Notes: generated from the sequence alone by a model not told the origin. A stretch of DNA of 64,000 bases from a virus (IMGVR_UViG_3300010938_000017); one strand, 5' to 3'; counted from the stretch's first letter, positions 7,879 through 62,162 are shown. Made by a program: numbers and translations.

Positions 7879-7934
7879 TATAGCGAGTTCGTTATAAAGC
7901 GATTTTATAATAGAAACGTTATATTGGAGTTCTA

Positions 7935-8885: not shown

Positions 8886-8894
8886 AGGTAAATA

Positions 8895-24870: not shown

Positions 24871-24902
24871 TTTTACTCCTTAGTAGTGTTATTATTAGAT
24901 GT

Positions 24903-24925
24903 TAATGTCTCATTATGAGACAGTC
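24903..24925 (-). promoter_or_regulatory. perfect palindrome TGTCTCA-TTA-TGAGACA inside a TTGACT-N17-TAACAT promoter-like context
   Basis: The coding orientation reads cagTTGACTgtctcataatgagacatTAACAT, about 35 nt upstream of the ATG at 24870. Confidence 0.45.
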
Positions 24926-25259
24926 AACTGTTTTTTATCTCTTTTCTTAATTTATTTTCTTCTTCAGTCTTTTTATCATGGCAAGGACCACATAAGGCTT
25001 GATAGTTCTCTTCTGAACAGAACAGTGATTCCACATACTTACCTAGGTTTTCAAACCCTGTAATAGCCACTACAGGAAATTTATGATCCATGAATATTTC
25101 TTTAGGTCCAAAGATTTCTTTACAGTTATTACACTTATACAGTCCACGAGATACTCGTGCAAGCTTTTTAGCTTCATTACGTGGTGGCCATTGATAACTA
25201 AGTCTACGTAGCTTAGGAATTAACCACGTTTTAAGATTTATTGGTTTCTTTTTTTTCAT
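24924..25259 (-). CDS. HNH-type endonuclease (zinc-finger)
   Basis: CNNC...H..F pattern typical of small HNH nucleases. Confidence 0.5.
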   Translation of the reverse strand: MKKKKPINLKTWLIPKLRRLSYQWPPRNEAKKLARVSRGLYKCNNCKEIFGPKEIFMDHKFPVVAITGFENLGKYVESLFCSEENYQALCGPCHDKKTEEENKLRKEIKNS

Positions 25260-41999: not shown

Positions 42000-42029
42000 A
42001 TTTTCTCCTATCTCATAATGATACGATCA

Positions 42030-42284
42030 TTAAGGTGTATTGTCAATAGAATGTTCTTCAAGAAGCGCCTCTATTGCTTCATACATAACTAAGCGAAATC
42101 TCTTGATAATATGGCGTTTCGTATTCGATCTTAAACCAGTAGCCTTAGCTACTAAGTACATTTGTTCCCAAGTAAACCATATTTTATCATCATCATCGAC
42201 TTGTTTTAATATTGGTTTTTCCTTAGTGTGTTTTTGTAAAAGGTCACAATAAGGCTTACGATGTGCCGAAAATCTACGTTTCAT
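42030..42284 (-). CDS. hypothetical protein
   Basis: 84-aa ORF. Confidence 0.35.
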   Translation of the reverse strand: MKRRFSAHRKPYCDLLQKHTKEKPILKQVDDDDKIWFTWEQMYLVAKATGLRSNTKRHIIKRFRLVMYEAIEALLEEHSIDNTP

Positions 42285-42745
42285 TTTATATAAACCTTTA
42301 CCGTAATATCTTTAAATGTGCTTTCCAGGATTGCTTTTACAATGTTCCAGTCGCCACCGGCTAGTCCACATCCGATCTTTGGCATAGCGACTACATTAAT
42401 TTTATACTGTTTACAATAGTTGTATAGTTCTTCCATGCAGGAAACTAATGCATCGTAAGAAAGATACTTTTCACCATCTCCACCGTAATATTGTTGTGTA
42501 AAACAATTAGCTACCTGTTTACCATGACGTTCAACGTAAAATACATCGATCTTACCAAGAAAGTTTTCACCTTCAGGTCCAGCATTAAACTCTTCAAACA
42601 TATCGTGATACCATTGCTTAACTCTAGGCCACTTCTCAAATAAGGCTTTAGCAACACCGCTCCCCATAACGCCTTGGCAATTAACGCCGTGCGCTATAAG
42701 TGGAGCATCAGTATCTAAAAGATCACCCTTTATTTCCTGAATCAT
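42281..42745 (-). CDS. macro-domain protein (ADP-ribose binding/processing)
   Basis: The sequence IKGDLLDTDAPLIAHGVNCQGVMGSGVAKAL matches the macro-domain G-D-I-x...A-N and G-x-G-G-V signatures. The start is set at an ATG with an AAAGGGGAAG Shine-Dalgarno. Confidence 0.7.
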   Translation of the reverse strand: MIQEIKGDLLDTDAPLIAHGVNCQGVMGSGVAKALFEKWPRVKQWYHDMFEEFNAGPEGENFLGKIDVFYVERHGKQVANCFTQQYYGGDGEKYLSYDALVSCMEELYNYCKQYKINVVAMPKIGCGLAGGDWNIVKAILESTFKDITVKVYIK

Positions 42746-42917
42746 CTTTCTTCCCCTTTGGTCTAGGATTTCTTGTATCCATAACAAAAGACCAGTATTT
42801 ACCCCATTCACCAGTTTCGAGATGAGGACCTTCACCAGTCTCTTCATAACCAGATATCAAGCCGCGTTTCCTTTGGCTCTCAACTAGTTTCCAAAACTTT
42901 CGTTCTTTTCGATTCAT
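42723..42917 (-). CDS. small basic ORF between NAMPT and macro genes (uncertain)
   Basis: 64-aa ORF without a clear Shine-Dalgarno. It overlaps the longest version of the macro ORF. Confidence 0.25.
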   Translation of the reverse strand: MNRKERKFWKLVESQRKRGLISGYEETGEGPHLETGEWGKYWSFVMDTRNPRPKGKKDDSGNKG

Positions 42918-42922
42918 TTTTC

Positions 42923-44407: not shown

Positions 44408-44559
44408 ACTAACTCCACTTGTTTACGTTTTTTAACAATTACTTTATCATCTTTTTCTTCTGGGCCACGGCATTGTAGTTTAACTGTATGCTTACGTTGC
44501 TCCAAAACTTCAGCTTCAATTTCCATATCGAATTTCAATGAGTATTATTTAGCTTTCAT

Positions 44560-44976
44560 TTAGTATTGTTTCTCATATTTAACGTTGAATTTTTTAGGAA
44601 AGTTCTTTTCTACAAAGTTAACTAATCTTTTAACAACGGAAGCAGAGGCGTGTTTTGACTTCTCTCTTTGCATAATATATTCAAAGTAGTTTGATAATGC
44701 ACCTAAATAATTCTTTTCATTAAGCAATCGTTTAATATTGTGATCAACTGCTGTTCCTCTACAATAACCCATCGCTATTTCACTAAGAGTACTGGTAGGT
44801 GCAAGATTTAAAACTCTTTTATCCAAAGAATTTTTAAGGACAGCGCCGACCGCACAAACAAAACATGATTCCGAATATATATTAGTTTTTTCATCCTTAA
44901 AAAAAGCACCAGCTCTAAGTGGTTCAGTTTTAATAGCTTTAATTACTTTGTTTTTAGTTAGCTTAAGTGTTTTCAT
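44560..44976 (-). CDS. hypothetical protein embedded in the NAD cluster
   Basis: 138-aa ORF between NAMPT and the Prs-like gene, with no recognisable motif. Confidence 0.4.
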   Translation of the reverse strand: MKTLKLTKNKVIKAIKTEPLRAGAFFKDEKTNIYSESCFVCAVGAVLKNSLDKRVLNLAPTSTLSEIAMGYCRGTAVDHNIKRLLNEKNYLGALSNYFEYIMQREKSKHASASVVKRLVNFVEKNFPKKFNVKYEKQY

Positions 44977-45763
44977 ATTTCCTCACTGTAATTTGACCTT
45001 GAACTTCACTGACTTCTCCATCTTTAGTGAAGATTCGGTTAATCTTAGCTTCCTTTAATGGTCGCAATCCTTTTGAATAGATACCATGACTAGTATAAAG
45101 ACTAACTGACTTAGCTCCACTATTATAGAGTTCTTTAGCCAGTAATACAAACGTCATACCACCATCACAAATGTCATCAATGATCATTACGTCTTTATCA
45201 TAGACGGTACCATTCATATCATTAAGTGTATATTTAGTGATATTGCCTGTCAACTGATCACGTTGCTTTTCACCATGAGCCACTGAACGATTAAGGAACG
45301 CTAGGTTCTTTGCATATCGCAGTCTGGCACCACGATCAGGAAAGCACAACACATCAGGATCACACGCTTTAACCGCATTGGCGATCTGAACAACAGGAAA
45401 GATATTGTGAAAATTCTTGATAAGAAAGATAGGTTCATCGCTGTGTGAATCAATAGCTGAGATCTTGTCTAACTTCAATGTATTCAAGAAGTTAGCGAAT
45501 GTCCTTAAAGCGAATGTGGATTCATTGCTGATCTCTTTATCTTGACGACCATAAGGCAGGTAATCCATAGCCAAAGAAATCTTCTTTACTTTCATAGACC
45601 TAAGCAGGTCAACCAGTTGGGCTAGGTGAAACAGTTCTGCCTCTTGAGAGAATTTCCAATCAATCATGGCAATGTCACCAACGATGAACGGAAGCTTCCA
45701 AACCTGTGAAGTCTGGTCACTAAAACGAGTTACCTCAATTGGATAACTATTTACGCTAATCAT
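44963..45763 (-). CDS. ribose-phosphate pyrophosphokinase (Prs) homologue, short form (266 aa)
   Basis: RFSD...VW, LPYGRQDK (resembling Prs IPYFGYARQDR) and the PRPP-binding loop VMIIDDICDGGMTF are present. Confidence 0.8.
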   Translation of the reverse strand: MISVNSYPIEVTRFSDQTSQVWKLPFIVGDIAMIDWKFSQEAELFHLAQLVDLLRSMKVKKISLAMDYLPYGRQDKEISNESTFALRTFANFLNTLKLDKISAIDSHSDEPIFLIKNFHNIFPVVQIANAVKACDPDVLCFPDRGARLRYAKNLAFLNRSVAHGEKQRDQLTGNITKYTLNDMNGTVYDKDVMIIDDICDGGMTFVLLAKELYNSGAKSVSLYTSHGIYSKGLRPLKEAKINRIFTKDGEVSEVQGQITVRKYENT

Positions 45764-45907
45764 TTTAACCCCTAGTTACTGGCACCGAATGAAAAGGAAT
45801 CGGTATCAATTTACCATCATACCACAGCCGATATCAACACCGACAGCAGCAGGACTATCACATCCTGCTGCAAATATTAAGAATAATACCAGAGCTACTT
45901 GTTTACA

Positions 45908-47353
45908 TTAGCGAGTCGAGGCTCCGTTAGACTTACCCGAACCATTCAATGCCGAAGCAGAGGGAGCCGGTTTAGCCAAAGTCTTGGTCAAGTTACCTAA
46001 CAGACCAGCGCCTTGTTCACTATTATTCAAAGCCTCAAGCATGGCACCAACTTGAGTGCCACCATTAGCAGTAAACAAGTCCATCACATTCGTCAAACCT
46101 TGGGTAGGTCCTGCTCCAGTGTTGGAGATAACCTTAATATCGGCATGGCCCAAAGCCTTAGCTTGCTCAACACCCACAGCTTGAGCGGCATGAATCTTTT
46201 CAATAGTAACGAGATACTCTTGATATTCCTTATTGCCACCAATCTCTTTAGCCAAGGTAATCTGTGCAGATACAGGAGCTAGTTCCATTGCCTTTGTAGC
46301 TTCAGCACGAGCAGTACCTTCAAGACTAATACCTTCAGCCTCGCGGCGCTTTGCTTCCAGATCGCCTTCAGCAACCAGAGTAAGTGTTGCCTTCTGTGCT
46401 TCAGCATTAATAAGCTGGGTTTGCTTTTGGCCTTCAGCGTTAATAACCTGAGTTTGTTTAATCTGTTCAGCCTTAACTATTTCAACTTCACGAGCAATTT
46501 CAGCGGTACGAACTTGTTGAACACTAAACACGTTCATCTCTTTCTCTTTAGTCACCTTTTCTTGTTCCTTAATTGCCTGAATCTTCTCTTGTTGAGCAAG
46601 GGCAACCTGACGTTCATTCTGAGTTGTACGCAGACCTACTTCTTGTTTTGCATTTTGATCCTGCAAATCAATTTCTTTCTTAGCTTCAATCTCAGCGATA
46701 GAAGCAACGCGCTTATTCTTAGCAACCTCAGTACGAGATTCCATTTCGATATGCGATTGTTTCTTAGCCATAATGTTCTTAATCACAGGGCTATCTTTAG
46801 AGTCACGAATGTCCATCAACTCGATGTTTTTAACAGTCGAAACACCCCAGTTCTTAAGCTGTTCAGCCACTTCTTTAGTGAACTGTTCGCCAAATACTGA
46901 GCGACCTTGCAGGATTTCTTCAATGTCGTAACTGGCCAAGACCACACGTACTGCGCCTTGAACAATCGAGGTCAATTGATCATGTAGTTCTTTAAAGGAA
47001 CTAACACGTTGAGCGGCAGTATTGCTATCAGAAATACGAAAGAAAGCCATAATGTCAACTACGAAAGGCAAGCGGCCTTTATCATAAGCTTCGTAGTTAT
47101 CAAGACGTAGTGAAAATACACTAACAGGCAAGATAATCCTGGTCACTCCAAAGAAAGGAACAAACGAAGGCCATTGATAATAAACGTTACCGTTACCAGT
47201 GTCTTTACCGTAACTAGTAGTTTTACGTGCCGATTGAACGGTATGTACTTCATTAGTCGATACTACTCGACGAAATACGAAAGCTACGAACAGGAACGTT
47301 GCGAGAGCTACGACACCTAATGTACCGAGAGCCGTAAGTGTAATTAGATCCAT
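45908..47353 (-). CDS. SPFH/band-7 (flotillin-like) membrane protein
   Basis: An N-terminal TM (LGTLGVVALATFLFVAFVF) is followed by an SPFH-like region and a long EA/EK coiled coil of flotillin type. Confidence 0.65.
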   Translation of the reverse strand: MDLITLTALGTLGVVALATFLFVAFVFRRVVSTNEVHTVQSARKTTSYGKDTGNGNVYYQWPSFVPFFGVTRIILPVSVFSLRLDNYEAYDKGRLPFVVDIMAFFRISDSNTAAQRVSSFKELHDQLTSIVQGAVRVVLASYDIEEILQGRSVFGEQFTKEVAEQLKNWGVSTVKNIELMDIRDSKDSPVIKNIMAKKQSHIEMESRTEVAKNKRVASIAEIEAKKEIDLQDQNAKQEVGLRTTQNERQVALAQQEKIQAIKEQEKVTKEKEMNVFSVQQVRTAEIAREVEIVKAEQIKQTQVINAEGQKQTQLINAEAQKATLTLVAEGDLEAKRREAEGISLEGTARAEATKAMELAPVSAQITLAKEIGGNKEYQEYLVTIEKIHAAQAVGVEQAKALGHADIKVISNTGAGPTQGLTNVMDLFTANGGTQVGAMLEALNNSEQGAGLLGNLTKTLAKPAPSASALNGSGKSNGASTR

Positions 47354-47486: not shown

Positions 47487-47882
47487 TCAGTAGGAGGAGC
47501 CTGAGTTCCAGTCGCCTGAGTTCCTGTTGCCTGAGTTCCCGTTGCCTGAGTTCGTTTTATTCATAAAAAAATCTAAAAGATATGAATGATCTAGTTCTTT
47601 AACTATTCTAATTTTTGAAGTACAAGTTTTATCTTGTTCATCAAGAGTTGGACCAATTGCCTCAATTTCACAAATCCTGGTGTCAATACTTTTCTTATAA
47701 TAATTATATACATCCAAAAGATTTTTACAAAAATGAAAACCATTTGAACACATTAATAGTTCACCTTCAACTTCATAGGTTTTACCTACTTCAAATTGAA
47801 AGTCTTTACACTTAAGATCTTTATCAAAAGCTTTATAACCTTTCACTTGACACCTCTTCTTCGAGAAACTTTCCAAAGACAT
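47487..47882 (-). CDS. hypothetical protein with C-terminal NSG pentapeptide repeats
   Basis: The C-terminus reads GNGNSGNRNSGDWNSGSSY and is encoded by a 15-nt tandem repeat. Confidence 0.45.
   Translation of the reverse strand: MSLESFSKKRCQVKGYKAFDKDLKCKDFQFEVGKTYEVEGELLMCSNGFHFCKNLLDVYNYYKKSIDTRICEIEAIGPTLDEQDKTCTSKIRIVKELDHSYLLDFFMNKTNSGNGNSGNRNSGDWNSGSSY
47499..47555 (-). repeat. 15-nt tandem repeat (gcctgagttccNgtN, about 3.7 copies)
   Basis: Read directly from the sequence; it lies in-frame in the 3' end of the gene at 47487-47882. Confidence 0.7.
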
Positions 47883-48118
47883 TGACGCACACGTTCTCTA
47901 GTCACATTAAACTTCTCAGCAATTTCATTCACATCCCAACCATCTTTATACATTATTGCCATAAGAAGATAGCGAGGATAATAAGGTTTAAGGGAATAAC
48001 GATTCACAATTGCATAAACATCAAGCTTATCTCTAGACGGATAATCAGAATTATTATGACGACTATTATTTTTATAAATATCTTTAAAAATATCTACCAT
48101 AGATCTTCGCATTAACAT
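47843..48118 (-). CDS. sigma-70 region-4-like helix-turn-helix protein
   Basis: The C-terminus EIAEKFNVTRERVRQCLWKVSRR matches the sigma region 4.2 HTH (compare LGVTRERIRQIE). Confidence 0.5.
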   Translation of the reverse strand: MLMRRSMVDIFKDIYKNNSRHNNSDYPSRDKLDVYAIVNRYSLKPYYPRYLLMAIMYKDGWDVNEIAEKFNVTRERVRQCLWKVSRRRGVK

Positions 48119-49901: not shown

Positions 49902-50708
49902 TTAGTAATTATAACCATCGTCGCTGTTGTAGTAATCGTCGTCAGCTTCCAATTCATTGTATTCTTCATTTTCAAGATCAGCCATCATCTCTTCATTGTC
50001 CATGCGATACACTGGTTCAGTTCGCATTGCTTCACTTTTAGCTACAACCTCGAACTTACAGACGCGCATCTTTGTGCCGTTGTAATCAGTAGGAACAGCA
50101 ACCACATCTTTGGGATCAACTGCGACTTCAATCAACTGTGGACCAAAGCTTCGAGCGTAATCATAACAGGCTACATGCAACCCGTGGCTACAAGTATTGT
50201 TGGGATTGTCATCCACTTGATCTCGTGGCACTTCACAAACTTGGCCCACCGAGTTATCAAACTTGCCGGTATGTTGATCCTTGAAGTCTTTGGTTACACC
50301 ACGGTATGCGATGAACCGACCATCCTCAGTCAACGGATGCCCGTTGTGTTCAAGGAACGCATAGAGCATTTTTCGAGAATTGAATGAAGGGTTCTGCTTA
50401 AGGTTCTTCCAAAACTTGACCATGATATCAATGGGTAGTTGAGCTTCGACAAGTTGTAAGACTCGCTTACTCAGCGTCTCAGGCAGCGGTTCGTTGTCCA
50501 TGTGCAGAAGACCATCCTTCAACACTAGACCTCTCTTTGCAAAGGCAGCTTCGGTATCCATCAACTCAGGAATATCACCTAGTCGATTCTCACGAATACA
50601 AGCCACGATCTGTTCGAAGCGCGTATCCCCTTTACGGAATACACTAGTTCGACCATTATGATTAACCACTACTGAATCACCTAGCAAATGATAGTTAACT
50701 TGTTTCAT
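49902..50708 (-). CDS. rIIB: rIIB protein
   Basis: The C-terminus TCSHGLHVACYDYARSFG...DVVAVPTDYNGTKMRVCKFEVV aligns with T4 rIIB (TCSRGLHVCSKSYIRHFG...DVVSIPIDYNDAKMRTCQYEVV). Confidence 0.85.
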   Translation of the reverse strand: MKQVNYHLLGDSVVVNHNGRTSVFRKGDTRFEQIVACIRENRLGDIPELMDTEAAFAKRGLVLKDGLLHMDNEPLPETLSKRVLQLVEAQLPIDIMVKFWKNLKQNPSFNSRKMLYAFLEHNGHPLTEDGRFIAYRGVTKDFKDQHTGKFDNSVGQVCEVPRDQVDDNPNNTCSHGLHVACYDYARSFGPQLIEVAVDPKDVVAVPTDYNGTKMRVCKFEVVAKSEAMRTEPVYRMDNEEMMADLENEEYNELEADDDYYNSDDGYNY

Positions 50709-50730: not shown

Positions 50731-50759
50731 CTATCGGTATCGTTCTTTAAAAACTTTAG
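50731..50759 (-). promoter_or_regulatory. conserved promoter-like element, copy 1 (upstream of rIIB)
   Basis: In the coding orientation it reads CTAAAGTTTTTAAAGAACGATACCGATAGATAAAC and is followed by the GGGAGAGAG Shine-Dalgarno and the ATG. Confidence 0.5.
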
Positions 50760-50761
50760 CA

Positions 50762-52789
50762 CTATTTTGAATTAATATATAAAGCTATGTCATCACTCAA
50801 CTTATTAAAGTTTGCATGGTTGATAGCATCTAACAACGGATACTCTTTAAGCTTCTTAGTCAACTCTGCATCCTCTTTATTAAACGTATCAACGTCCGGT
50901 TGCTGGCCAAATATCTTTAGTATCTTGGTAGGAATACTATCATATGTGGCTGATCTAGAGTCTACCATTATCTCTTTATACTCAGCAATCATTTTGTTTA
51001 AGAACTTATCTTTAATACCTGTAACGTTTAACAGACTACTCATCATATCGGTATTCTTAGCTTCCTTAAGCTTTAAGACAGCAACATCTTTCTTAGTAGC
51101 CTTTACCTTAGCTAATTGTGTCTCTAATGGTATGAAGTTTGCATCACCTTTAACCAGACTTATCGCCTGTTTCGATAAAGCACATACCTTAAAACCTTGA
51201 GCAGAGAAGTACGTGTCCATCTCATGTAATTCAGACTTGTTTATAAGATCAGTCTTCTCAACAAACAACCACTTAGTAGTATTCGATTCAGTACTAACTG
51301 TCAGCATTGTATGTCTGACGCGGTCCATTCGATGAACGATGAACTGTTTCTTTGTTCGTTCAACCTTCATCGACTCCCGAGCCTTACGATCCGGTTTGGT
51401 AAAAGCCAGTGAAGACAATGGCTTAAGACCTAAATCCTTCTTGACTTTATCAAACTCACCTTTATCATCCTTGTGCTTACTAAACAGAATGAGATGTTTG
51501 TTCGTCTTTAAAAAATCCTTGATACGATAATTCGTAATGACCATTGCCTCAGTCGTATCGTTGTAGTAAAGAGCATCGAAGTATACAGCGTTGATATAAG
51601 GCGTTGAATATGACCAGGAGTATCTCGTTTTCTTGAACAGATTATCCTTAAGCAAACTGTTGTTGGTCGGATGAAACTGACACTTATGAGCTATGATCTT
51701 TTCAAACAAAGGTGATTGAATTTGATTCTTAGCATCAACCGTATAGTCACCATACTTTCTAAAAGAATCCAGATTGTACTTATCCTTCAATGTCATGAAC
51801 GTAGTTAGATGCTCAAAGGGTGACGTAACTTTAGCAAACTCTTTCTTTAGTCTAGCCAAGATGTTCTTGTGTGCTTCAGCCGCGATCTTATCCAGGTTAT
51901 CTAAAGTGTATTTAGAATCGGAGATCTCTTCACGAGATGCACCGACTTCAATCTCACCGTTACCAACGTGAAGAACTATGTTTGAAGTTACACTCTCTTT
52001 TAACAATTTTAAGTTAGGGCACGAAGCAATAAGAGATTCACCTGCCACATAAGGAATACCATCAATTGAGATAACAATCTTTTTACCGTAATGATCGGCG
52101 ATGTAATTTGGCAACTCCGTACACAACTCAACGTTACCAATAGTTTCGCCTTGGACACGAGGAACTACTTCCTCCTTAGTAAAACCTTTTAAGATCGGTT
52201 GTTCTTTCTCAGGCCAGAAGTATACAGCACGACGAGCCGCATTCTTAAACTCTTCAACATCCTTCGGACTAACTGGAATCTGAATCTCTGTTCCATTCGG
52301 CTGATCGGTGTTAGCCTCTCCTAAATAATCCAAACGTCCGTTGTTATTCGCTCCGATATGGGCAATGTAAGTACGTTGTACCCCATCGATGTATGTAACA
52401 ACCGTAAACGATTCGGTGTAGGACCATGCCGATTTCGCACCAATGCCGAAGCCGCCAGTCTCTTTGTTCGACTTATCCTTAGTCGAAGCATCATACTTGA
52501 TGAAGACATTCAACATCCTGTCAGGGGTAATGCCAGGACCAAAGTCACGAACCTTAAACGTTGGTGTGAAAATTGTGGGCACAGTAATCTCAATGCGGTC
52601 GGAGGAACCTAACTCCCTCATCGCATCACGAGCATTACAAATATACTCTTGGCTTGGTGTACGAACTTTAAACTTGTACATTTTGTTACGAAGAATCTCA
52701 ATGATCTTTGAAGTATCACCAATTGAAAACTCTTGACTGGTGAACTGAGCGTTAGTCTCAAGTGTTTTTTGTGTTTGATTCAATTTCAT
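50762..52789 (-). CDS. rIIA: rIIA protein
   Basis: The N-terminus FSIGDTSKIIEIL...FKVRDFGPGIT...GGFGIGAKSAWSY aligns with T4 rIIA (FSITASPKVFKIL...FVCRDFGPGMS...GGFGLGSKSPFSY). Confidence 0.85.
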   Translation of the reverse strand: MKLNQTQKTLETNAQFTSQEFSIGDTSKIIEILRNKMYKFKVRTPSQEYICNARDAMRELGSSDRIEITVPTIFTPTFKVRDFGPGITPDRMLNVFIKYDASTKDKSNKETGGFGIGAKSAWSYTESFTVVTYIDGVQRTYIAHIGANNNGRLDYLGEANTDQPNGTEIQIPVSPKDVEEFKNAARRAVYFWPEKEQPILKGFTKEEVVPRVQGETIGNVELCTELPNYIADHYGKKIVISIDGIPYVAGESLIASCPNLKLLKESVTSNIVLHVGNGEIEVGASREEISDSKYTLDNLDKIAAEAHKNILARLKKEFAKVTSPFEHLTTFMTLKDKYNLDSFRKYGDYTVDAKNQIQSPLFEKIIAHKCQFHPTNNSLLKDNLFKKTRYSWSYSTPYINAVYFDALYYNDTTEAMVITNYRIKDFLKTNKHLILFSKHKDDKGEFDKVKKDLGLKPLSSLAFTKPDRKARESMKVERTKKQFIVHRMDRVRHTMLTVSTESNTTKWLFVEKTDLINKSELHEMDTYFSAQGFKVCALSKQAISLVKGDANFIPLETQLAKVKATKKDVAVLKLKEAKNTDMMSSLLNVTGIKDKFLNKMIAEYKEIMVDSRSATYDSIPTKILKIFGQQPDVDTFNKEDAELTKKLKEYPLLDAINHANFNKLSDDIALYINSK

Positions 52790-53128
52790 GCAATCTCCTT
52801 AAACTCAATCTCATTTTTAATCCACCAACGTATTACAACTGTCAAAACTTTCGTAAACTACTGTTTAGTTTGCGACTCAGTTTGAGGCGTTCCCCAGACT
52901 CAAAGCGAAACACACGTAACTAATGTTGATTGATACAACCAATATCCAGAAGATAGGACTAGCTGGGATGTTAGTTATAAAGTGTTGAGCAACTGCAATA
53001 ATAAAAGACAATACAGTAAGAGATACAATCCGTTTAATATGTTTCATATGTTCCTTTAAAAGAAGTTCGTTTTTGTTTTACTCTAAGAACGAACTAAACT
53101 TAGGACTTGAGCCTGGGGACACAGGCTA

Positions 53129-53389
53129 CTATTTTACTTCATAAAATTGTTTATTGATATTCAAACTACTTACTGTCTCAAGATTAACCATACGGTAATC
53201 TTTGGCTTGCATGTCAAAGACAGTGATCAAGTTATAGTCACTTGGATCATAGGTCAAGCCGTTACCATTAGTCTTATTTGAAACACCAAGTCTACAATTC
53301 ATCTTCCTTACTTCACCATCCTTCTTAGTAAAAGTTACTGTAAAGATCTTACCATTTGATTTAGTGATCAAATCCTTTGCCTGTTCCAA
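53129..53389 (-). CDS. hypothetical protein
   Basis: 86-aa ORF. Confidence 0.4.
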   Translation of the reverse strand: MEQAKDLITKSNGKIFTVTFTKKDGEVRKMNCRLGVSNKTNGNGLTYDPSDYNLITVFDMQAKDYRMVNLETVSSLNINKQFYEVK

Positions 53390-53654
53390 ATCAAGAATGT
53401 TTGCATTAGCTTCTGTCTTCTTATTAACCTTAGCCTTAGAAACTTTTACTTCTTCTTTATCATAACCAAGACAACTAACAGTACCGTCTCGTTTCAGGAT
53501 ATATGTATATTCCTGTCCACAATCTGAGTCGTAGGGAACAACCTAATCAATCCAGCAGTTGTTCTCATTTTGAGATTCCACTTAATAGTCGGTACCACAA
53601 CAGTAGGAAACTTCGCCTTGAACTGAGATACAACCCTATCAATGATATCCCGTT

Positions 53655-53855
53655 TCATAACACTTCAATCTTTTCTTCTTCAATACAACCCATGTCAATA
53701 TATCTTACTTTAGATACATTAAACTTTAAGAACGTATCAATCTTAGATAGAGTCTCAACTTGAAACAACTCCAATTGTTTCTTAGTAGGTTTAATAAAGT
53801 AATGTTCTTTAACTAAACAGTTACCAAACAAATCAACCGCTTCAATTTTATACAT
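53655..53855 (-). CDS. hypothetical protein
   Basis: 66-aa ORF with a Shine-Dalgarno; promoter-element copy 2 lies upstream. Confidence 0.4.
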   Translation of the reverse strand: MYKIEAVDLFGNCLVKEHYFIKPTKKQLELFQVETLSKIDTFLKFNVSKVRYIDMGCIEEEKIEVL

Positions 53856-53870
53856 ATCATATCCCTTTTG

Positions 53871-54425
53871 TTAAGAGCTACAAACACCGTACACTAGCCA
53901 GCGTAACTCTCTACTATTCTTATCGGCTTTCTTTTGTAGAACTTTAGCCTCATCTGAAATTTTCTTATTAACTAATGCAAGTTTATTATTAAGCGATTGT
54001 TCCTTATTAGTATATGTATTAGATGCAAACGAACCATCACATATTGGACAACGTAACGTTCTGGTACGGAATCGTGTATCAAGTTGAGACTTACAATGTG
54101 AACACTTAATAAACTCAACCGCTTTTAACTTCGACTCAACATGAGACGCTTTTTCAGTTCGTAACAATCTAATCTCTTCTTCAATTTTGAGACGTTGCTC
54201 TTTAAGACGTTTCAGTTTAGCACTCTCTTTAATTTTATTGCTTGTCTTAAATTGAGCCGCTAATGCATCACCCCATTTTTTTGCATTATTAGCACAATAA
54301 TCATACGCCTCATTTAGGGATTCGAATGTCTTATTAGTAAACGTTAATCCTGTACACATATTGAGAATAAGAGTTACCAGACTCATATTTACATTCATCT
54401 TGATACTCTTTAAACTTTGCCTCAA
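53871..54425 (-). CDS. zinc-ribbon / coiled-coil protein (start uncertain)
   Basis: Zinc-ribbon motif CSHCKSQLD...CPICDGSF. The longest ORF begins at a TTG; probable ATG starts lie at 54398 or 54385. Confidence 0.4.
   Translation of the reverse strand: MRQSLKSIKMNVNMSLVTLILNMCTGLTFTNKTFESLNEAYDYCANNAKKWGDALAAQFKTSNKIKESAKLKRLKEQRLKIEEEIRLLRTEKASHVESKLKAVEFIKCSHCKSQLDTRFRTRTLRCPICDGSFASNTYTNKEQSLNNKLALVNKKISDEAKVLQKKADKNSRELRWLVYGVCSS
53918..53947 (-). promoter_or_regulatory. conserved promoter-like element, copy 2 (diverged)
   Basis: The coding orientation reads CTAAAGTTCTACAAAAGAAAGCCGATAAGAATAG. It overlaps the 3' end of the upstream gene. Confidence 0.4.
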
Positions 54426-54507
54426 CTTGAGACATTGTTAATTTGCCGTCAAGTTCAATAGAATCGTCGCAAGCTCCCATATAATTCCTCCGTCTCATTT
54501 TGAAACG

Positions 54508-54753
54508 TTAGTCGCTCGTGTCCCAGTCTGAATCAATTAGTGTTAACTGACCATCTGCTTCAATATAAAACAATCCTGTTCCCCATTTGGCACGTTTAGG
54601 TCTTGTCTCAAATTCATCCACATAAACGTCTCGATGTAAGACACCTAATTTTTCTAATGCAGGATCAATTGATTCAATATGAAACGGTCGTGGCATATAG
54701 TTTAAAACGTGCTGACCTAATTGAATGTATCTCATTATGATACCTTTGCCCAC
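54508..54753 (-). CDS. hypothetical protein
   Basis: 81-aa ORF. Confidence 0.4.
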   Translation of the reverse strand: MGKGIIMRYIQLGQHVLNYMPRPFHIESIDPALEKLGVLHRDVYVDEFETRPKRAKWGTGLFYIEADGQLTLIDSDWDTSD

Positions 54754-55412
54754 TTCGTATTAGTATAAGATTTTGTCCCATGATAGCACAGTCCCACTTT
54801 GGGATTGTTACCCATAGCTGTTACCATATCATCTTGAGTCGCATCACTATAACCCGCTGTCTTAAGTTGAGACACTGTCTCAAATACACGCGAATGAAAA
54901 TCTTTATTAATATCAATTAGAGAATCCTGTTTGCCTCCAAATGAGAATATAACTCGGAAGTTCTTAGGAATACGTTTCTCACTTTGATACTGTTTGAACA
55001 TCTTAACTTGTTTAGTATAGGCATAAAATGATACAGTACTCGTTGACTCAAATCGACACATGATCATTAGCCACTTATCAAGATATGTCTCATTATAGAA
55101 ATCACCAGCATCGTGGATTCTCACTTTGAGATGCTTAGTGTTTCTCTTATTGATCCACTTTTCAATCTCAGCAATCATATCAGTAACGAACGTATCAGTT
55201 TGAGTTAATGCTAATTTAGCTTCGTGTGCTTTTGAGACATTGTTCCAAATGTAGGCACCTTGTTTAGCATAACAACCCGCAGCACATAATCCCGCATTGG
55301 GACATGTCTTAAGACCTGTCTTAGATTGAAACGCTGGTATCGTCCAGTTCACTACAGTAATCCCATTTTGAGACGACTTCTTCATCTTTGCGTTTTGTGT
55401 TAACAATTCCAT
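54735..55412 (-). CDS. hypothetical protein with Cys cluster (CPNAGLCAAGCYA)
   Basis: 225-aa ORF with an AAGGAGG Shine-Dalgarno; promoter copy 3 lies upstream. Confidence 0.5.
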   Translation of the reverse strand: MELLTQNAKMKKSSQNGITVVNWTIPAFQSKTGLKTCPNAGLCAAGCYAKQGAYIWNNVSKAHEAKLALTQTDTFVTDMIAEIEKWINKRNTKHLKVRIHDAGDFYNETYLDKWLMIMCRFESTSTVSFYAYTKQVKMFKQYQSEKRIPKNFRVIFSFGGKQDSLIDINKDFHSRVFETVSQLKTAGYSDATQDDMVTAMGNNPKVGLCYHGTKSYTNTKWAKVS

Positions 55413-55428
55413 GTGTCCTCCTTACAAT

Positions 55429-55461
55429 ATAACTTATCGGTATTATTCTAGAAAACTTTAG
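55429..55461 (-). promoter_or_regulatory. conserved promoter-like element, copy 3
   Basis: The coding orientation reads CTAAAGTTTTCTAGAATAATACCGATAAGTTATATTGT, followed by AAGGAGG and the ATG. Confidence 0.55.
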
Positions 55462-55523
55462 GACTAAATCAACTATTTTTCTGTATCATTTCGAGGCGCT
55501 TCCCCCGTTTCATTCTGATACGA

Positions 55524-55949
55524 TCAGTTCCCAAAGTGAGATGCTATAACTGATTTAGCAAACAAATGACCATCATCCCTAATACGCTCAAGCGTCTCAT
55601 TAAGATCCACAGGATGATATAGATTGTATTGTTTTGTGTCAACTCCAGCCGCCTCAACTTGATACTTACTCATCTCAAAACAGACCGTTAGTTCAATAAC
55701 TCCTTTTGAGGCACGAGGAAACTCTTGTCTCATACTGGGTCGTGCATAACTTGGTACGCCTCGAACTGATACGGCATCAAGTACAACATTCTTAATTTGA
55801 GCCATGCCAGCCTCAAGAGGATTCTGTTTCTTTTTGATACGGTTAAATTCTTTTGCATCAAATTGAATCACTACAGCCAGTTCATAGCCATCTTGTCCAT
55901 AGCCACGCTGTCTCTGAATGACACCTTTCATCGATTTAATATAATTCAT
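55524..55949 (-). CDS. hypothetical protein
   Basis: 141-aa ORF; promoter copy 4 lies upstream. Confidence 0.45.
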   Translation of the reverse strand: MNYIKSMKGVIQRQRGYGQDGYELAVVIQFDAKEFNRIKKKQNPLEAGMAQIKNVVLDAVSVRGVPSYARPSMRQEFPRASKGVIELTVCFEMSKYQVEAAGVDTKQYNLYHPVDLNETLERIRDDGHLFAKSVIASHFGN

Positions 55950-55962
55950 GTTGTCCCCTTAT

Positions 55963-55996
55963 AATAACTTATCGGTCAACTCTCAAAAAACTTTAG
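55963..55996 (-). promoter_or_regulatory. conserved promoter-like element, copy 4
   Basis: CTAAAGTTTTTTGAGAGTTGACCGATAAGTTATTATAAGGGG, followed by the ATG. Confidence 0.55.
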
Positions 55997-56289
55997 AGCT
56001 AAATTGAGATCTTTACAAATAACAGCGACCACATTTGATACTATCATAATAGTACACTGTCTCAGCATGGGCCATATACTCTTCATCACATTTCCAACAG
56101 CCCACTTTGATACGTTTACCAGTGCCGCGATAATATCGATATAAGACCATAAGCTTAAAAGCCTTGTATCAAATATAGACACGCGATCTACCATATAGAT
56201 TTCTTGATGCCAAATATAAAAACTGTTTCATAATAGAACGCTTAATAATGGGGCGACTTGATAATATCGCCCTAATCTCTTGTTTCATA

Positions 56290-56661
56290 TTAATACAACT
56301 TTTCTTGTACACAATCGTACACATAAGAACTGTCTTCATTTAATACGTCTAATTCTTCGTCAGTCATTTCCCTGCCTTGATATGAGGCGCTTGCAATAAA
56401 AGCATCACAAAAGTCAGGATAGTCTCGTATATCAATACCATCCACTTCAACATCCTCAATTTGAGAATAGTCCAGTTTGATACGTTCTCTAATAGGACCA
56501 TGTGTAAATAGACGAATCTTGTTTTGATCCATTGCTTCAAATCGAGACACCCAACGTTTGTATCCTGCCTCTGTCTTAAATTTAAACGTTCGTCCCTCTG
56601 TGAAACGCTCACGCGGTACCATCACCTTAATCACATACCCTATAATTTTTCGTTCTGTCAT
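56290..56661 (-). CDS. hypothetical protein
   Basis: 123-aa ORF; promoter copy 5 lies upstream. Confidence 0.45.
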   Translation of the reverse strand: MTERKIIGYVIKVMVPRERFTEGRTFKFKTEAGYKRWVSRFEAMDQNKIRLFTHGPIRERIKLDYSQIEDVEVDGIDIRDYPDFCDAFIASASYQGREMTDEELDVLNEDSSYVYDCVQEKLY

Positions 56662-56670
56662 ATGTCCTCC

Positions 56671-56707
56671 ATATATATACTGATCGGTATCTTATCAGAA
56701 AACTTTA
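56671..56707 (-). promoter_or_regulatory. conserved promoter-like element, copy 5
   Basis: CTAAAGTTTTCTGATAAGATACCGATCAGTATATATATGGAGG, followed by the ATG. Confidence 0.55.
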
Positions 56708-56806
56708 GTCAAAAACCACATTTATTTTCGTCTCACTTTGAGGCGTTAAGGGAACGCCTCAAATAGAGATGGACTAAGGTATCTCATATTAAGACACCTT
56801 AACTAT

Positions 56807-57004
56807 CTAAGACACCTTAACTATAAGACCATCTTTCATGGTCACTTGAGCGTACCATTTCCGAACGTATGGAGATGGGCCAACGACACAAAATGAGCCG
56901 TTTTCTTTATATTCAGGACCAAACATAGATGTCTCAGTATAATTCAACGGTTTCCCAATTTGAGACTTCAACTCTTTTTTCGTTTTATAATTAGCACCCA
57001 TCAT
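56807..57004 (-). CDS. hypothetical protein
   Basis: 65-aa ORF with an AAGGAGG Shine-Dalgarno. It is preceded by a 155-nt leader downstream of promoter copy 6. Confidence 0.45.
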   Translation of the reverse strand: MMGANYKTKKELKSQIGKPLNYTETSMFGPEYKENGSFCVVGPSPYVRKWYAQVTMKDGLIVKVS

Positions 57005-57160
57005 GGAACGCCTCCTTTTGATACAGTTATTATTCTTCGTATGAATATGGATCGTCTCTCAAAATAAAACAACCTGCATTCCGGTTGACCGAAGATAGAC
57101 GCATATCAGTCCTATCGATTAGTCTGGCCACCGCTTACCGGCTTACCATCACCGCGCTTA

Positions 57161-57195
57161 CATATAATTTATCGGTGTCTTTTCGTAAAACTTTA
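57161..57195 (-). promoter_or_regulatory. conserved promoter-like element, copy 6
   Basis: CTAAAGTTTTACGAAAAGACACCGATAAATTATATGT. Confidence 0.5.
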
Positions 57196-58305
57196 GCAAT
57201 ATATTAACTATTTTATTGACTCATAACGATACATGCATCAAAATGGGATTAACAACTGAATGTGAACGAACCATCTTGAGACAAGGCCCGTATTGTCTCA
57301 TTTTGAGCCGTTCCTAAATGAAACATAAGGAAATGTGTCATTTTAAAGCAATCAACATAATAGTTCGTCCCATATCAAGGTGTTTGATTGTGAGTGTATT
57401 AAAACTAATCGTATTGTAATGATACGACTCATTTCGAGACTAATCCTGCTGTGGTACGTCTCAAGGTGAATGAGCTAAAATGTGACATATTCGTGACCAC
57501 CTATTGAATGTCTCACTTTAATACAACTAGCCTATTATGAGGCCTAGTATCATAACGAGAATAAAGTGTATTAATTCGAGACTTAACCCTCTCTAATGGA
57601 TTTTTTTAACTATAATATAAAATGTTATTAAGTTTAACCTATTTAAGATAATATATAACACAATCCTGATGAGAATTAGCTTATTTAACTTGAAATAATA
57701 TATATTTCATCTAATAGAGTATATTAACTTATCCTGAAATGATACAGTAAACTATATTGAATCTGAAGTGAAATCAATACGTTATCACATCTAATGTAAA
57801 GCATTGTAAAAGCATCTACAATAGAGTATATAATGAATGTATTAATACCTATTAAGACTGTATCTTTTTCTATAAATCACATATAACAGCTAAAAACTAA
57901 TAAATTGTCACGGATAAGTGTCTCAAAATGGTATTTTGGCATCTTATTTGCAGGATAATGGTGTGTCTCACTATAGATACACTTTAAAATCGCTATATTA
58001 AGCTATAAACGCTTAGTGTATAATCATTTTACGCTCCAAAATGAGTCATTTATCCTGTGTATTAACCTTAGAATAGGCTATATTAGTGCCTACAATGACA
58101 TATGAGAGGCGTAGCCTGAACGGGGTCACTGGGGGTCACTCGGTAACATCATTTTAAATACCTATTTCTACTACGTTTTTAATACATGTTACTCAATGAC
58201 ACCAGGTTCGGGTTTCAATATGATACAGGCACAATTCTTGCAAATACAAAAACCATGCCATGTCTCATTTTGATCCTCCGTCTCAAATTGATACGTTTAA
58301 TTTAG

Positions 58306-58345
58306 ATACAAAAAAACCCTGTACCATTGCGATACAGGGTAAAAC
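58306..58345 (-). terminator. Rho-independent terminator
   Basis: The minus strand reads CCCTGTAtcgcaatggTACAGGG followed by T7, just downstream of the stop at 58371. Confidence 0.65.
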
Positions 58346-58370
58346 TTGTGTATTAACACCTATGGGACGA

Positions 58371-58595
58371 CTAGGCTACACGTTTTTTATTGAGAAAATC
58401 AACCTTAATAACATTATGGTCGTTTTTAAGACGCTTATGGATTTTAGCCATCTGAAATTTAGCTATAGCCATTTCTTTACTCCAATATGAGATAGCATAC
58501 TGATCGCCTGTCTCACATTTACATTGTAACGCCGTACCACACTGAGAAATCCTTTGGGCCAAAATATTTAATGCACCGATATAATACTGTCTCAT
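58371..58595 (-). CDS. hypothetical protein
   Basis: 74-aa ORF with a GAGGGAG Shine-Dalgarno and an ATGAGACAG start. Confidence 0.45.
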   Translation of the reverse strand: MRQYYIGALNILAQRISQCGTALQCKCETGDQYAISYWSKEMAIAKFQMAKIHKRLKNDHNVIKVDFLNKKRVA

Positions 58596-58910
58596 TTTGA
58601 AACTCCCTCTTCTTTAAGTATGTGTCTCACTTAAAAACGCTTTTAAATCTTAATTTGAGACAATAATTTATCAATTAACTCTTGTCTCATATTAGCCCAC
58701 CTCGTCCAAGGTCTCAAAATCGTCCACATTCTCAAAATAGTCCTCAATCTCAAATAGAGACTCTTCATCTAGGAACGTAACATCCTGAGACAGTTTCTCT
58801 ACTAATTCTGCTTTCTCAGTTTCAGTCAATTGGTATACATTTACATCATGTTTCATAACGAGTCGTCCCCTTTTCGTTAATGTTTATTCACTTAATTCTT
58901 AACTGCCTGA

Positions 58911-58945
58911 CATATAACTTATCGGTGTATTAACTCTTAACTTGA
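58911..58945 (-). promoter_or_regulatory. conserved promoter-like element, copy 7
   Basis: CTCAAGTTAAGAGTTAATACACCGATAAGTTATATGT. Confidence 0.5.
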
Positions 58946-59610
58946 GGTATTTTGTCATCTTATTATTCTATGGATACCATAAGCAGAACTGCGTCTCATA
59001 ATGAAACCCCTTTCTCCGTTGTCTCATTTTGATACACTTCCTCCGGCATGGTTATTGCATGGGGGCACAGTGGCACGGTTTATGCATAACTGGGTATGGC
59101 TGGCACAGTATGTGCAATATCAAGAGTCATGCCAACGTCTCAGGTTGAGACAGAGGGAGGGGTAGGGGGGATGGGGGGTACAAACAGACGAATGACCGGA
59201 AATGTCTATATACTAGAGAGAGTATTTTATTAACAATACAACTTATTACACTTAATCAGACTTTTCAGATTTCTTTCTTAGAATAGTCTTTGGAGTAAAC
59301 GATTGGTCTTTCGGATAGAACTTTTCACGTTCTCTACGTTTCTTTTTCCAGTAAGGATCATCCTTATCGGCGTACCGACCTTTCTCACTTTTAGATAAAA
59401 ATCTCATAATTTATTATCACTAGACATTAATAAAACGGTTCTCGATCACATTGGCCAGGGTAACTGGCTTGAGCCGATAAGCAACCATCTCACCACTATG
59501 AGCATTTCAGCTCTTTGGAGTAGGTGACACTCAAGACTGGTACTCTTTGGTCCGCGCCAGTACGCAATTAAATTATCTCTTATATAATTTTTGAAGTCAA
59601 TTATAACTTA

Positions 59611-59841
59611 TTACACTATCTTCTTTAGAATCAACTCATTGTTGTTATTCATATCCTTTTCTCGATCAACGTCACGGTCACGAGAGCATCGGATGAAGAA
59701 GTCACGTTGGCTCATAGCTAGTTCCAATGCCTCAACCAACTTCAGGATATCTTGTCGATAGTACTTCACCAAGTTAGCATCAGACTTAACATCGCCAGTG
59801 TTGTAGAATTTGAGTTGGTCTAATTTTTCTTTAAGTGTCAT
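59611..59841 (-). CDS. hypothetical protein
   Basis: 76-aa ORF. Its start lies inside a GTGTAATAAGTTATG box that recurs at 59227 and 59614. Confidence 0.4.
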   Translation of the reverse strand: MTLKEKLDQLKFYNTGDVKSDANLVKYYRQDILKLVEALELAMSQRDFFIRCSRDRDVDREKDMNNNNELILKKIV

Positions 59842-60047
59842 AACTTATTACACTTCTTATTAGAACACTTCATGAGGATGGGTTCAGAGACATCTGGTGA
59901 TAGGTGTTGCCCTGTTCCCTTACAATATTCGCAGACAGTTTGTTTTGGAGAAGTAGGAGTCTTACGAGACTTAATAGAATAAATGGTTTCAGGTTTTTGA
60001 CCTTTAGGCGTTGTAGGTACTCTCATTCCCCAATCTATAGATTTCAT
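59838..60047 (-). CDS. zinc-ribbon small protein
   Basis: CEYCKGTG...CSNKKC motif. Confidence 0.4.
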   Translation of the reverse strand: MKSIDWGMRVPTTPKGQKPETIYSIKSRKTPTSPKQTVCEYCKGTGQHLSPDVSEPILMKCSNKKCNKL

Positions 60048-60296: not shown

Positions 60297-60371
60297 TGGC
60301 GTACCCTCTTGGAATCTAACCAAGGACCTTCGACTTAACAAGACGCTGCTCTAACACTGAGCTAAGGGCAC
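60297..60371 (-). tRNA. tRNA-Asn(GUU)-like gene with encoded CCA and a weak anticodon stem
   Basis: The minus strand reads GTGCCCTTAGCTCAGTGTTAGAGCAGCGTCTTGTTAAGTCGAAGGTCCTTGGTTAGATTCCAAGAGGGTACGCCA. It has a 7-bp acceptor stem (one G-U), a 4-bp D stem, a perfect 5-bp T stem and a TTGTTAA loop. The anticodon stem has only 3 of 5 pairs, and A56 and the absence of G18G19 are atypical. Confidence 0.5.
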
Positions 60372-62068: not shown

Positions 62069-62162
62069 ACTAACTCCTAAAAATGGTCTGAGTAACAGGA
62101 TTTGCACCTGCGTCTTCCAGATTCCAGATCTGGCCTGCACCTATTTCCAGCCACACTCAGGA

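Follow-up and report, generated by a model that had tools for sequence, protein, structure and literature searches.

A bounded array of dyads upstream of rIIA

The virus IMGVR_UViG_3300010938_000017 was analysed over a window of 64,000 nucleotides (the whole stretch of DNA considered here), in which about 6 kb directly upstream of an rIIA-like gene is filled with copies of a single short symmetric site, a 15–17 bp dyad of the form YGTCTCA-N3-TGAGACR. Every gene between 21.6 and 64 kb, including all those discussed below for the block and its surroundings, lies on the minus strand. The main components of the block and its downstream border are as follows, in the order in which they are met from the upstream edge.

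52873..59152, unstranded: the dyad array as found by matrix scans, 68 sites of at least 12 bits (about 90 of at least 9 bits), about 10.7 per kb
59136..59152, unstranded: first (promoter-proximal) dyad, the perfect palindrome CGTCTCAGGTTGAGACA, 20.2 bits
58588..58604: dyad with an internal start codon (ATG on the minus strand, 58595-58593) that begins the 74-aa open reading frame (ORF) 58371-58595, with the Shine-Dalgarno sequence GGGAG upstream
58261..58295, unstranded: two abutting dyads 18 bp apart, TGTCTCATTTTGATCCT and CGTCTCAAATTGATACG, directly 3' of a terminator-like hairpin on the gene strand
57575..57927: non-coding, dyad-free, AT-rich gap in mid-array, 352 bp, 23% GC with a minimum of 17% per 100 bp
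56729..56771: dyad pair centred at -52 and -78 from the G of a sigma-28 -10 element at 56685, jointly forming a longer palindrome
54735..55412, minus strand: GP88-family gene containing 10 dyads, 4 of them at codon positions that match the ortholog in contig L001 and the rest lineage-specific
54858..54892, unstranded: two abutting dyads inside the GP88-family gene, quoted in the initial annotation as TTGAGACAcTGTCTCAA
53871..54498, minus strand: Zn-ribbon/coiled-coil gene, the sole protein conserved in every dyad block, the window copy being split by a 1-nt frameshift
52873..52912, unstranded: downstream end of the array, the final dyads lying about 31 nt ahead of a GAAAGTTT element that precedes rIIA
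50762-52789, minus strand: rIIA-like gene, dyad-free, bounding the array downstream
49902-50708, minus strand: rIIB-like gene, dyad-free, following rIIA; a homolog carries Pfam Phage_T4_rIIB

The initial annotation, made from the sequence alone, had drawn attention to an over-representation of GTCTCA and its complement TGAGAC in this region, and that excess is borne out. The window holds 55 copies against 28.2 +/- 6.3 in dinucleotide shuffles, and 37 of these fall within 53752-59151, where 1.8 would be expected from the frequency elsewhere in the window (Poisson p = 4e-35) and where GTCTCA is the top enriched 6-mer. The excess survives control for local AT content, as Markov simulations trained on the region itself yield 2.6 +/- 1.7 copies at order 1 (maximum 11) and 4.9 +/- 2.2 at order 2 (maximum 14), so that 37 copies stand against an expectation of about 2–5. 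The four sequence contexts quoted in support of the excess were all found, at 54868/54877, 57277/57295, 59137/59146 and 58589.

When whole dyads rather than hexamers are counted, the array has sharp edges: density is 10.7 sites per kb in the block, 0 across rIIA and rIIB, 0.2 upstream and 0.14 downstream. Only 6 dyads of at least 12 bits occur in the other 57.6 kb of the window. Lowering the threshold to at least 9 bits yields about 91 sites in 53.5–59.3 kb and some 25 across the remaining 58 kb, with a null expectation of about 21 per 64 kb. Within the block, density in called coding DNA (14.2 per kb) and in the remainder (11.6 per kb) can be read as equal, and dyads occupy all reading frames and both orientations.

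The block was at first described as a coding-poor early region containing micro-ORFs. Coding-poor is apt for 57.2–58.35 kb, which makes up a 1.1-kb non-coding stretch, but not for the block as a whole, about half or more of which is ORF; its genes are real small genes, encoding the GP88-family protein, a WYL_2 protein and members of several PHROG families. Likewise, the ATGAGAC starts that had been assigned to micro-ORFs belong to ordinary small genes, and just 3 of the 11 genes called in the window block use them. The label of early region is plausible. What the initial annotation did not record is the palindromic 15–17 bp unit, the sigma-28-type promoters before the genes, the sharp block edges and the conservation of the array across a clade, which form the substance of the sections below.

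Two side observations concern individual components of the block. A small motif, TGTATTAA(C/T), recurs around the gap at 57575-57927, as does the repeat AATAGAGTATAT, at 57713 and 57820. The frameshift in the Zn-ribbon gene lies at 54334-54425, at a conserved YSG motif, and leaves two ORFs; a sequencing error, a pseudogene and a programmed shift are all possible explanations.

The dyad is probably recognized as DNA

Alignment of the 37 hexamers reveals conserved T, G, A, n, A, C at 9–14 nt downstream and a pyrimidine immediately upstream, which identifies GTCTCA as the half-site of the dyad. Spacing of the arms is strictly 3 bp: GT.TCA-N3-TGA.AC occurs 10 times in the block and 0 times when the spacing is 2 or 4. 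The centre is A/T-rich, AAA or TTT being commonest. The matrix used for all site counts was iterated without fixing the core and trained on the window's own block.

A palindrome can act as a folded RNA or as duplex DNA, and several comparisons bear on this choice. Complementary variable positions in the two arms number 7 against 7.8 expected in the window and 22 against 19.4 in the related contig L001, and in four genomes the arms of the same site show no excess pairing over shuffled partners. The stronger arm tends to lie on one strand in the window and on the other in L001, and the copies associated with start codons are no better hairpins than the others (5.03 versus 5.13 pairs of 7, p = 0.55). 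An RNA hairpin maintained by covariation is rejected, since pairing in the four genomes is at the level of shuffled partners and the variable arm positions are independent. Taken together, the lack of arm complementarity, the pairing at shuffled level and the opposite strand bias speak for a symmetric protein that recognizes the duplex, and on the basis of these patterns the reader of the dyad is likely to be a dimeric protein that binds double-stranded DNA. The earlier proposal of a repeated operator half-site agrees with this: the hexamer is one arm of a fixed-spacing dyad, the arms vary independently, and an isolated perfect copy lies in the spacer of a sigma-70-like promoter. As to the arrangement of sites on the helix, there is a 9.5-bp phasing signal (z about 3), although the period was picked post hoc and the signal is weak in 2 of 4 genomes.

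Conservation among uncultured relatives

No close relatives of the window were found among GenBank phages by megablast, the only matches being distant ones to rIIA and the polymerase. Relatives were recovered from uncultured phage contigs, which we refer to by our own handles. L001, found through a homolog of the GP88-family protein, lies on a 118-kb IMG/VR contig and carries 68 GTCTCA copies in a 7–8 kb block that again ends right before rIIA. Alignment of rIIA recovered L032, L034 and L037 (the last from the same contig as L001), with an identical dyad in the identical placement, and L036, which is truncated and has 7 sites within 1.4 kb of upstream sequence. L178 and L179, found through the Zn-ribbon protein, have 3.5–4.8 sites per kb upstream of rIIA. 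The array upstream of rIIA is thus kept in at least five other uncultured phage contigs (L001/L037, L032, L034, L178 and L179). The blocks of the window, L034 and L037 each carry about 10 sites per kb, that of L032 carries 8.1 and that of L179 4.3, compared with 0–1 per kb in the adjacent rII genes and 0–0.3 elsewhere.

This conservation spans deep divergence, rIIA identity across the clade being 30–36%. The window and L001 blocks have only two genes in common, those for GP88 and the Zn-ribbon protein. In the GP88 orthologs, dyads at codon positions 38, 80, 206 and 353 are common to both and the others are lineage-specific, and such partial retention with partial turnover is the pattern expected of selected binding sites. 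In the other rIIA-bearing contigs (L030, L031, L035 and L038-L057) neither the dyad nor an equivalent of other specificity was found, only diffuse word biases. Tandem repeats unrelated to the dyad occur in two of them: in L042 a 12-bp unit, TAGCGAGTnCCA, is present about 93 times, distributed over several arrays, and L057 has an array with the unit CCAAGTG..GA.C at 19-21 kb. L032 has a dyad-free 2.5-kb stretch (6601-9095) before rIIA, and it alone encodes a protein with a PhaR-type DNA-binding domain between the dyad block and rIIA together with a CarD_C-like protein (9080-9382 and 11-334).

Promoters of the sigma-28 type

A second element, CTnAAGTTTT-N11-(G/A)CCGATAAG, is conserved 20–45 nt before many block genes. 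The consensus for sigma-28 (FliA), the factor that reads the promoters of flagellar class 3 genes, is TAAAGTTT-N11-GCCGATAA (PMC2859248), and the block-gene element matches it at 13–15 of 16 positions with the canonical N11 spacer. On the gene strand of the window there are seven matches with 1–3 mismatches of 16, four of them with a single mismatch. The predicted promoters are listed here.

58919..58945, minus strand: sigma-28-type promoter TCAAGTTA-N11-ACCGATAA, 3 mismatches
57169..57195, minus strand: sigma-28-type promoter TAAAGTTT-N11-ACCGATAA, 1 mismatch
56681..56707, minus strand: sigma-28-type promoter TAAAGTTT-N11-ACCGATCA, upstream of ORF 56290-56661
55969..55995, minus strand: sigma-28-type promoter TAAAGTTT-N11-ACCGATAA, upstream of ORF 55524-55949
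55434..55460, minus strand: sigma-28-type promoter TAAAGTTT-N11-ACCGATAA, upstream of the GP88 gene 54735-55412
53920..53946, minus strand: sigma-28-type promoter TAAAGTTC-N11-GCCGATAA, within the 3' end of the Zn-ribbon gene
50731..50758, minus strand: sigma-28-type promoter with an N12 spacer, before rIIB, no dyads nearby

Such matches number 6–13 each in L178, L179, L001, L034 and L037, with L032 a partial exception (only 2), against a shuffled null of 0.2–2.4 per sequence and 0 in non-clade relatives and in unrelated phages that use the dyad. In L034, L037 and L179 both rIIA and rIIB have a promoter of this type in front of them and lack dyads in its vicinity. The presence of such promoters before block and rII genes suggests use by the phage of the host's flagellar sigma factor, or of a factor that mimics it. 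Compared with the flagellar class 3 promoters, those described here are predicted from sequence, lie on a phage genome and would drive accessory and rII genes; a literature search for phage gene sets driven by sigma-28-type promoters found no report. Also relevant to transcription is a 91-aa ORF at 47843-48118 (minus strand), whose C-terminus, NEIAEKFNVTRERVRQ..., resembles sigma-70 region 4.2. Five of its six best PDB sequence matches are RpoD/SigA region-4 fragments, with weak E-values (0.1–0.8), and it might redirect RNA polymerase by mimicking region 4.

The dyads stand in a regular relation to these promoters. Measured from the G of GATAAG at 22 promoters, the interval between -40 and +35 holds the centres of just 2 of the 61 neighbouring dyads; centres are found repeatedly at -42/-52 and near -78, and resume downstream of the promoter. 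A second relation is to start codons. In 28 of the 62 genes called in the blocks of four phages, using heuristic calls based on a Shine-Dalgarno sequence plus ATG, the ATG begins exactly at dyad centre+1 (GTnTCAAA-ATG-AGAC), namely 3 of 11 in the window, 5 of 21 in L032, 11 of 14 in L034 and 9 of 16 in L037. The Shine-Dalgarno GGAG often supplies the first G of the left arm, and other dyads abut the Shine-Dalgarno sequence from upstream, for example at 54491-54507 and 42009-42025. The suggestion that the motif is a conserved gene-start module is therefore right for these genes, and the same register recurs in the unrelated phage contig L115, but it accounts for a minority of sites: start-associated dyads are 31 of 348 across six blocks (~9%), and density is equal in coding and non-coding DNA.

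At its upstream edge the block is entered through a boundary that also has counterparts in relatives.

59154..59251, minus strand: upstream block boundary, with a GTGTAATAAGTT box at 59240-59251, a sigma-70-like promoter TTGTTA-N18-TATATA at 59207-59236 and a C-rich leader tract at 59154-59178

The order of sigma-70-type promoter, C-rich leader and first dyads is shared with L034 and L037, where the edge promoter is TTGACG...TATAAT and is overlapped by a different palindrome. This palindrome, TGACGCAGTGCGTCA, overlaps the -35 element at L034 2235-2270 and L037 2695-2725, has more copies 100–250 nt upstream, and is likely to be a second operator system. The tract at 59154-59178 is G-rich on the plus strand and C-rich in the leader RNA, its equivalent in L034 and L037 being TATCCCCCCGTA. 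The 12-bp box GTGTAATAAGTT (gene strand; AACTTATTACAC on the plus strand) occurs at 59240-59251, 59605-59616 and 59842-59853, immediately 5' of the -35 elements of sigma-70-like promoters upstream of the block, and is found in the opposite orientation in L034 (about 2163) and L037 (about 2618). At 59410-59600 (minus strand), about 190 nt of non-coding sequence lie 3' of a good sigma-70-like promoter, TTGACT-N17-GATAAT; its fold is not significantly stable (z = -1.6) and it has no Rfam match.

The best dyad outside the block, a perfect palindrome, is found in yet another promoter.

24899..24927, minus strand: sigma-70-like promoter TTGACT-N17-TAACAT whose 17-bp spacer is filled by the isolated perfect dyad GTCTCATAATGAGAC at 24907-24921

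To judge from the predicted promoter, this is the classical position of an operator bound by a repressor. The operon behind it encodes a 106-aa protein, a trypsin-like peptidase (23475-24362) and an Rz-like spanin (23203-23514), so lysis genes may be under the same regulator as the block. As a general rule, placement of the dyad in a sigma-70 promoter spacer was rejected, the copy at 24.9 kb being the single clean case.

The same dyad in unrelated phages

A scan of IMG/VR for GTCTCAAAATGAGAC returned, among the matches listed, mostly chance single matches, together with a few contigs in which the dyad is repeated. Two of these, L093 and L071, are GC-rich, unrelated phage contigs. In L093 (4620-4770) an ORF of 302 aa, whose N-terminal part is an HTH_36 winged helix, contains five dyads, and these repeats encode V-S-Q-N-E-T; in L071 (8807-8897) an ORF with an IstB/DnaC-like loader next downstream contains three. 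By analogy with the architecture of lambda O, we infer that these dyads are iterons inside a putative initiator gene, which suggests that phage proteins with dyad specificity exist.

Other contigs use the dyad differently. L080, L131 and L175 are overlapping pieces of one unrelated phage in which it is scattered at about 1.2 sites per kb. L115 has eight near-perfect AGTCTCACAATGAGACT copies at gene boundaries, three of them with a gene start at centre+1; neither L115 nor L080 has sigma-28-type promoters. L108, which like the clade has GP88 and DUF932, carries three strong dyads within 300 bp. The GC content of the dyad-using phages ranges from 0.36 to 0.60.

Other genes of the window

Beyond the block and the rII genes, the window encodes a family-B DNA polymerase, a primase-helicase, ribonucleotide reductase, NAMPT, ERF, a PD-(D/E)XK nuclease and a Macro-domain protein. 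Since rIIA/B and the phage's own polymerase and primase-helicase are present and no integrase is seen in the window, the phage looks virulent. Neither a repressor nor an integrase was recognised among the ORFs scanned. A cluster of NAD/nucleotide genes at 42281-47353 (minus strand) contains the Macro-domain protein, NAMPT (42923-44407), a phosphoribosyl pyrophosphate (PRPP)-synthetase-like protein (44963-45763) and an SPFH/Band-7 protein (45908-47353). Rfam finds two tRNAs across 52.5–64 kb and nothing else: tRNA-Asn at 60297-60371 and a second tRNA at 62087-62160 (minus strand, 35.6 bits) that ARAGORN missed.

Interpretation of the array

We give about even weight to the reading that the dyads are recognition sites of a sequence-specific, twofold-symmetric protein that binds double-stranded DNA, and that the array controls the accessory-gene block as a unit, most probably by silencing. 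The block, 6–8 kb of small fast-turnover accessory genes with about 70–90 sites, would be entered from the sigma-70-type promoter and end at rIIA, most of its genes carrying their own predicted sigma-28 (FliA)-type promoter. Occupancy of the array would then control the whole block together, with roadblocks at gene starts and within genes and with bracketing or looping of each promoter, while rIIA and rIIB, which have the same promoter type but no dyads, would escape control. A candidate for the binder is a winged-helix protein like those that apparently use the dyad as origin iterons in other phages. An effect in the direction of off rather than on is favoured because sites are found at gene starts and in gene bodies and not in promoter cores, because the bracketing distances are like those of known repression loops, and because of the copy in the promoter spacer and the dyad-free rII genes.

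Several results weigh against this interpretation. Searches with Pfam and PHROGs of ORFs in the block, upstream of it, in the replication module and in the 22–25 kb operon, and of 150 pooled ORFs of the window and relatives, found no convincing helix-turn-helix, winged-helix or other DNA-binding domain, the only finds being the weak sigma-70 region-4-like 91-aa ORF and, in L032 only, the PhaR-like and CarD_C-like proteins. The Zn-ribbon/coiled-coil protein (~200 aa) is unsupported as the binder because it has no DNA-binding structural neighbour. The near absence of dyads from promoter cores argues against simple promoter occlusion, and the upstream sites, near -64 and -90 from the predicted transcription start, would also suit an activator. 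Iteron-like use of the dyad elsewhere, along with the AT-rich gap in the window, fits an origin function. Finally, as the matrix was trained on the window's block, the site counts in the window are partly circular; those in relatives are independent of the training.

The model of the Zn-ribbon protein (predicted local distance difference test score, pLDDT, 74.7) has an alpha/beta domain with an inserted coiled-coil hairpin and a zinc-ribbon tip, resembling a Zn hook; the protein has no Pfam family, no PDB sequence match and no significant structural neighbour, and it was not found in cultured phages. No homologs of the L093 and L071 initiators were found by tblastn in the clade sequences searched, nor was an O-like or HTH_36 initiator found by tblastn or Pfam in the window and the available parts of the relatives, whose genomes are incomplete. 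The small ORFs beside the dyad clusters of L108, L115 and L080 yielded no domains. The window being only a portion of a genome of 84 kb or more, a gene for the binder may lie beyond it.

The most substantial alternative is that the block is a replication-origin zone, with the dyads serving as iterons for a phage initiator on the lambda O paradigm and the array and AT-rich gap serving in initiation or initiator titration. The repetition of the dyad three to five times in the putative initiator genes of L093 (HTH_36) and L071 (beside the loader) speaks for it, as do the lambda iterons, likewise imperfect inverted repeats in gene O beside an AT-rich region (PMC7466680), and the dyad-free gap of 352 bp and 23% GC. 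We nevertheless consider an origin unlikely: 68–90 sites are spread over at least 11 genes and 6 kb rather than 4–6 in one gene, the gap has no clear counterpart in L032, L034 or L037, DnaA boxes are not enriched, the sequences searched contain no O-like/HTH_36 protein, and the start-codon register, the promoter bracketing and the 24.9-kb operator are left unexplained. It is improbable that the array is instead a decoy that titrates a host DNA-binding protein, such as a flagellar or motility regulator, during genome amplification. The link of the block promoters to the host flagellar sigma factor and the very high local copy number fit such a sponge, and a shared host-type factor could explain the dyad in unrelated phages of differing GC, but a GC range of 0.36–0.60 speaks against one host group, no known host site matches, and the positional rules for promoters and start codons would not be needed. 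Among host sites the FleQ box (14-bp GTCaNTAAATTGAC) was rejected, GTCA-N6-TGAC occurring 0 times and GTC-N8-GAC once in the block.

An element acting in RNA, as a hairpin or single-strand site that forms a translational operator or RNase target at gene starts, is very improbable. It would account for the exact register of the start codon in 28 of 62 genes and for the copies abutting Shine-Dalgarno sequences, and strand symmetry alone does not exclude it, as a palindrome is identical on both strands; however, the arms of a site show only the pairing seen with shuffled partners, hairpins at start-associated sites are no better than the rest, starts account for only about 9% of sites, the promoter-spacer copy at 24.9 kb is untranscribed from that promoter, and a single-strand site gives no reason for palindromy. 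We assign an equally low probability to recombination or cassette-exchange sites, integron-like or PeSL-like, underlying the turnover of block genes. The motif has persisted through the turnover of gene content, the starts of many genes coincide exactly with a dyad centre, and the L115 dyads lie at gene boundaries, yet breakpoints of homology between the L034 and L037 blocks are no nearer to dyads than random positions (median distances 30.5 versus 33.8 and 40.5 versus 29.8 nt), the segments that recur within and between blocks are ~100-bp promoter-leader modules, the majority of dyads are inside genes, and the blocks contain no recombinase that we could find. A compositional or coding artefact, through codon bias or a repeated peptide, is refuted: some copies do encode similar peptides (S-Q-N-E-T) in a preferred frame, but the enrichment persists against local Markov models, non-coding density is equal, all frames and both orientations are used, and the array is conserved in genomes with unrelated genes.

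Control of the block by a dyad-binding protein could also be cast in a more far-reaching form, which we find somewhat unlikely as a whole. This clade of large, virulent phages would run its fast-evolving accessory genes, for host takeover or anti-defence, off host sigma-28 promoters and so tie them to motile cells and perhaps to flagellar entry. Iteron-derived dyads, at ~10 per kb, would seed chromatin-like silencing of the block, and not of the rII genes with their like promoters, through an initiator-type winged-helix protein.

Comparison with known systems and implications

Arrays of operators and of iterons are both already known, the former from stoperators, the conserved inverted repeats of phiC31 and the C1 operators of P1. 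Stoperators of Cluster A mycobacteriophages (L5 gp71 type) are many short sites, beyond promoter operators, for one phage DNA-binding protein, and are thought to halt elongating RNA polymerase, silencing whole transcription units; they are 13–14 bp, asymmetric and read by a monomer, number about 20–35 per genome, and are distributed genome-wide in short intergenic gaps, oriented with transcription, in the service of temperate immunity (PMC9283540, PMC6550527). The array is alike in having many copies of one short site beyond promoter operators. It differs in that the site is a symmetric 15–17 bp dyad with both arms conserved, and in that 70–90 copies are gathered in one 6-kb block, equally dense inside genes and without consistent orientation. 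In phiC31 and P1, one repressor recognizes a 17-bp site at a dozen or more places per genome; these sites are intergenic and associated with promoters or terminators, both phages are temperate, and the density is roughly a tenth of that of the dyad array or less.

The lambda origin has 4–6 iterons within one gene, read by the O initiator with its dimeric winged-helix domain; each iteron is an imperfect inverted repeat of 19 bp around a central A tract, in mid gene O and beside an AT-rich region (PMC7466680). The dyad resembles them as an imperfect inverted repeat with an AAA/TTT-rich 3-bp centre that can sit in coding sequence, but the layout of few copies in an initiator gene is met by L093 and L071 only, whereas the array has tens of copies in many genes and no initiator gene was found. 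The lambda iteron, TCCCTCAAAACGAGGGA, shares a CTCAAAAyGAG core with the dyad.

Sequences locked to gene starts are also known. The Start-Associated Sequence (SAS) of Cluster K mycobacteriophages is a 13-bp asymmetric motif found solely 3–8 bp upstream of start codons (PMC3203893). The dyad shares such locking, but is symmetric, contains the ATG within the motif and is at gene starts in only 31 of 348 copies. The PeSL cassettes of the hyperplastic regions of T4-type phages, each an early promoter plus stem-loop, are likewise repeated promoter-leader modules before small genes in a plastic region; the dyads differ in not being hairpins under selection and in lying away from gene starts in more than 90% of cases.

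Searches of the literature did not turn up any symmetric site that covers the coding and non-coding DNA of one bounded phage block at about 10 per kb, and to our knowledge a dense block of symmetric sites with sigma-28-type promoters, conserved across a deeply diverged clade of virulent type, has not been described. If a protein coats the array, virulent phages would have a novel means of switching an accessory cassette as a unit, one that combines traits of stoperators and iterons, with one site per 60–100 bp inside genes, at an unreported density. If the block is indeed a silencing domain, it would amount to a block-level on/off switch of a kind undescribed in phages. The dyad array is also a sequence signature by which the hyperplastic accessory block, with its anti-defence and host-takeover genes, can be located in uncultured phages. 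Lastly, the promoters of sigma-28 consensus suggest that the phage may couple early expression to host motility, which is relevant to flagellotropic infection.

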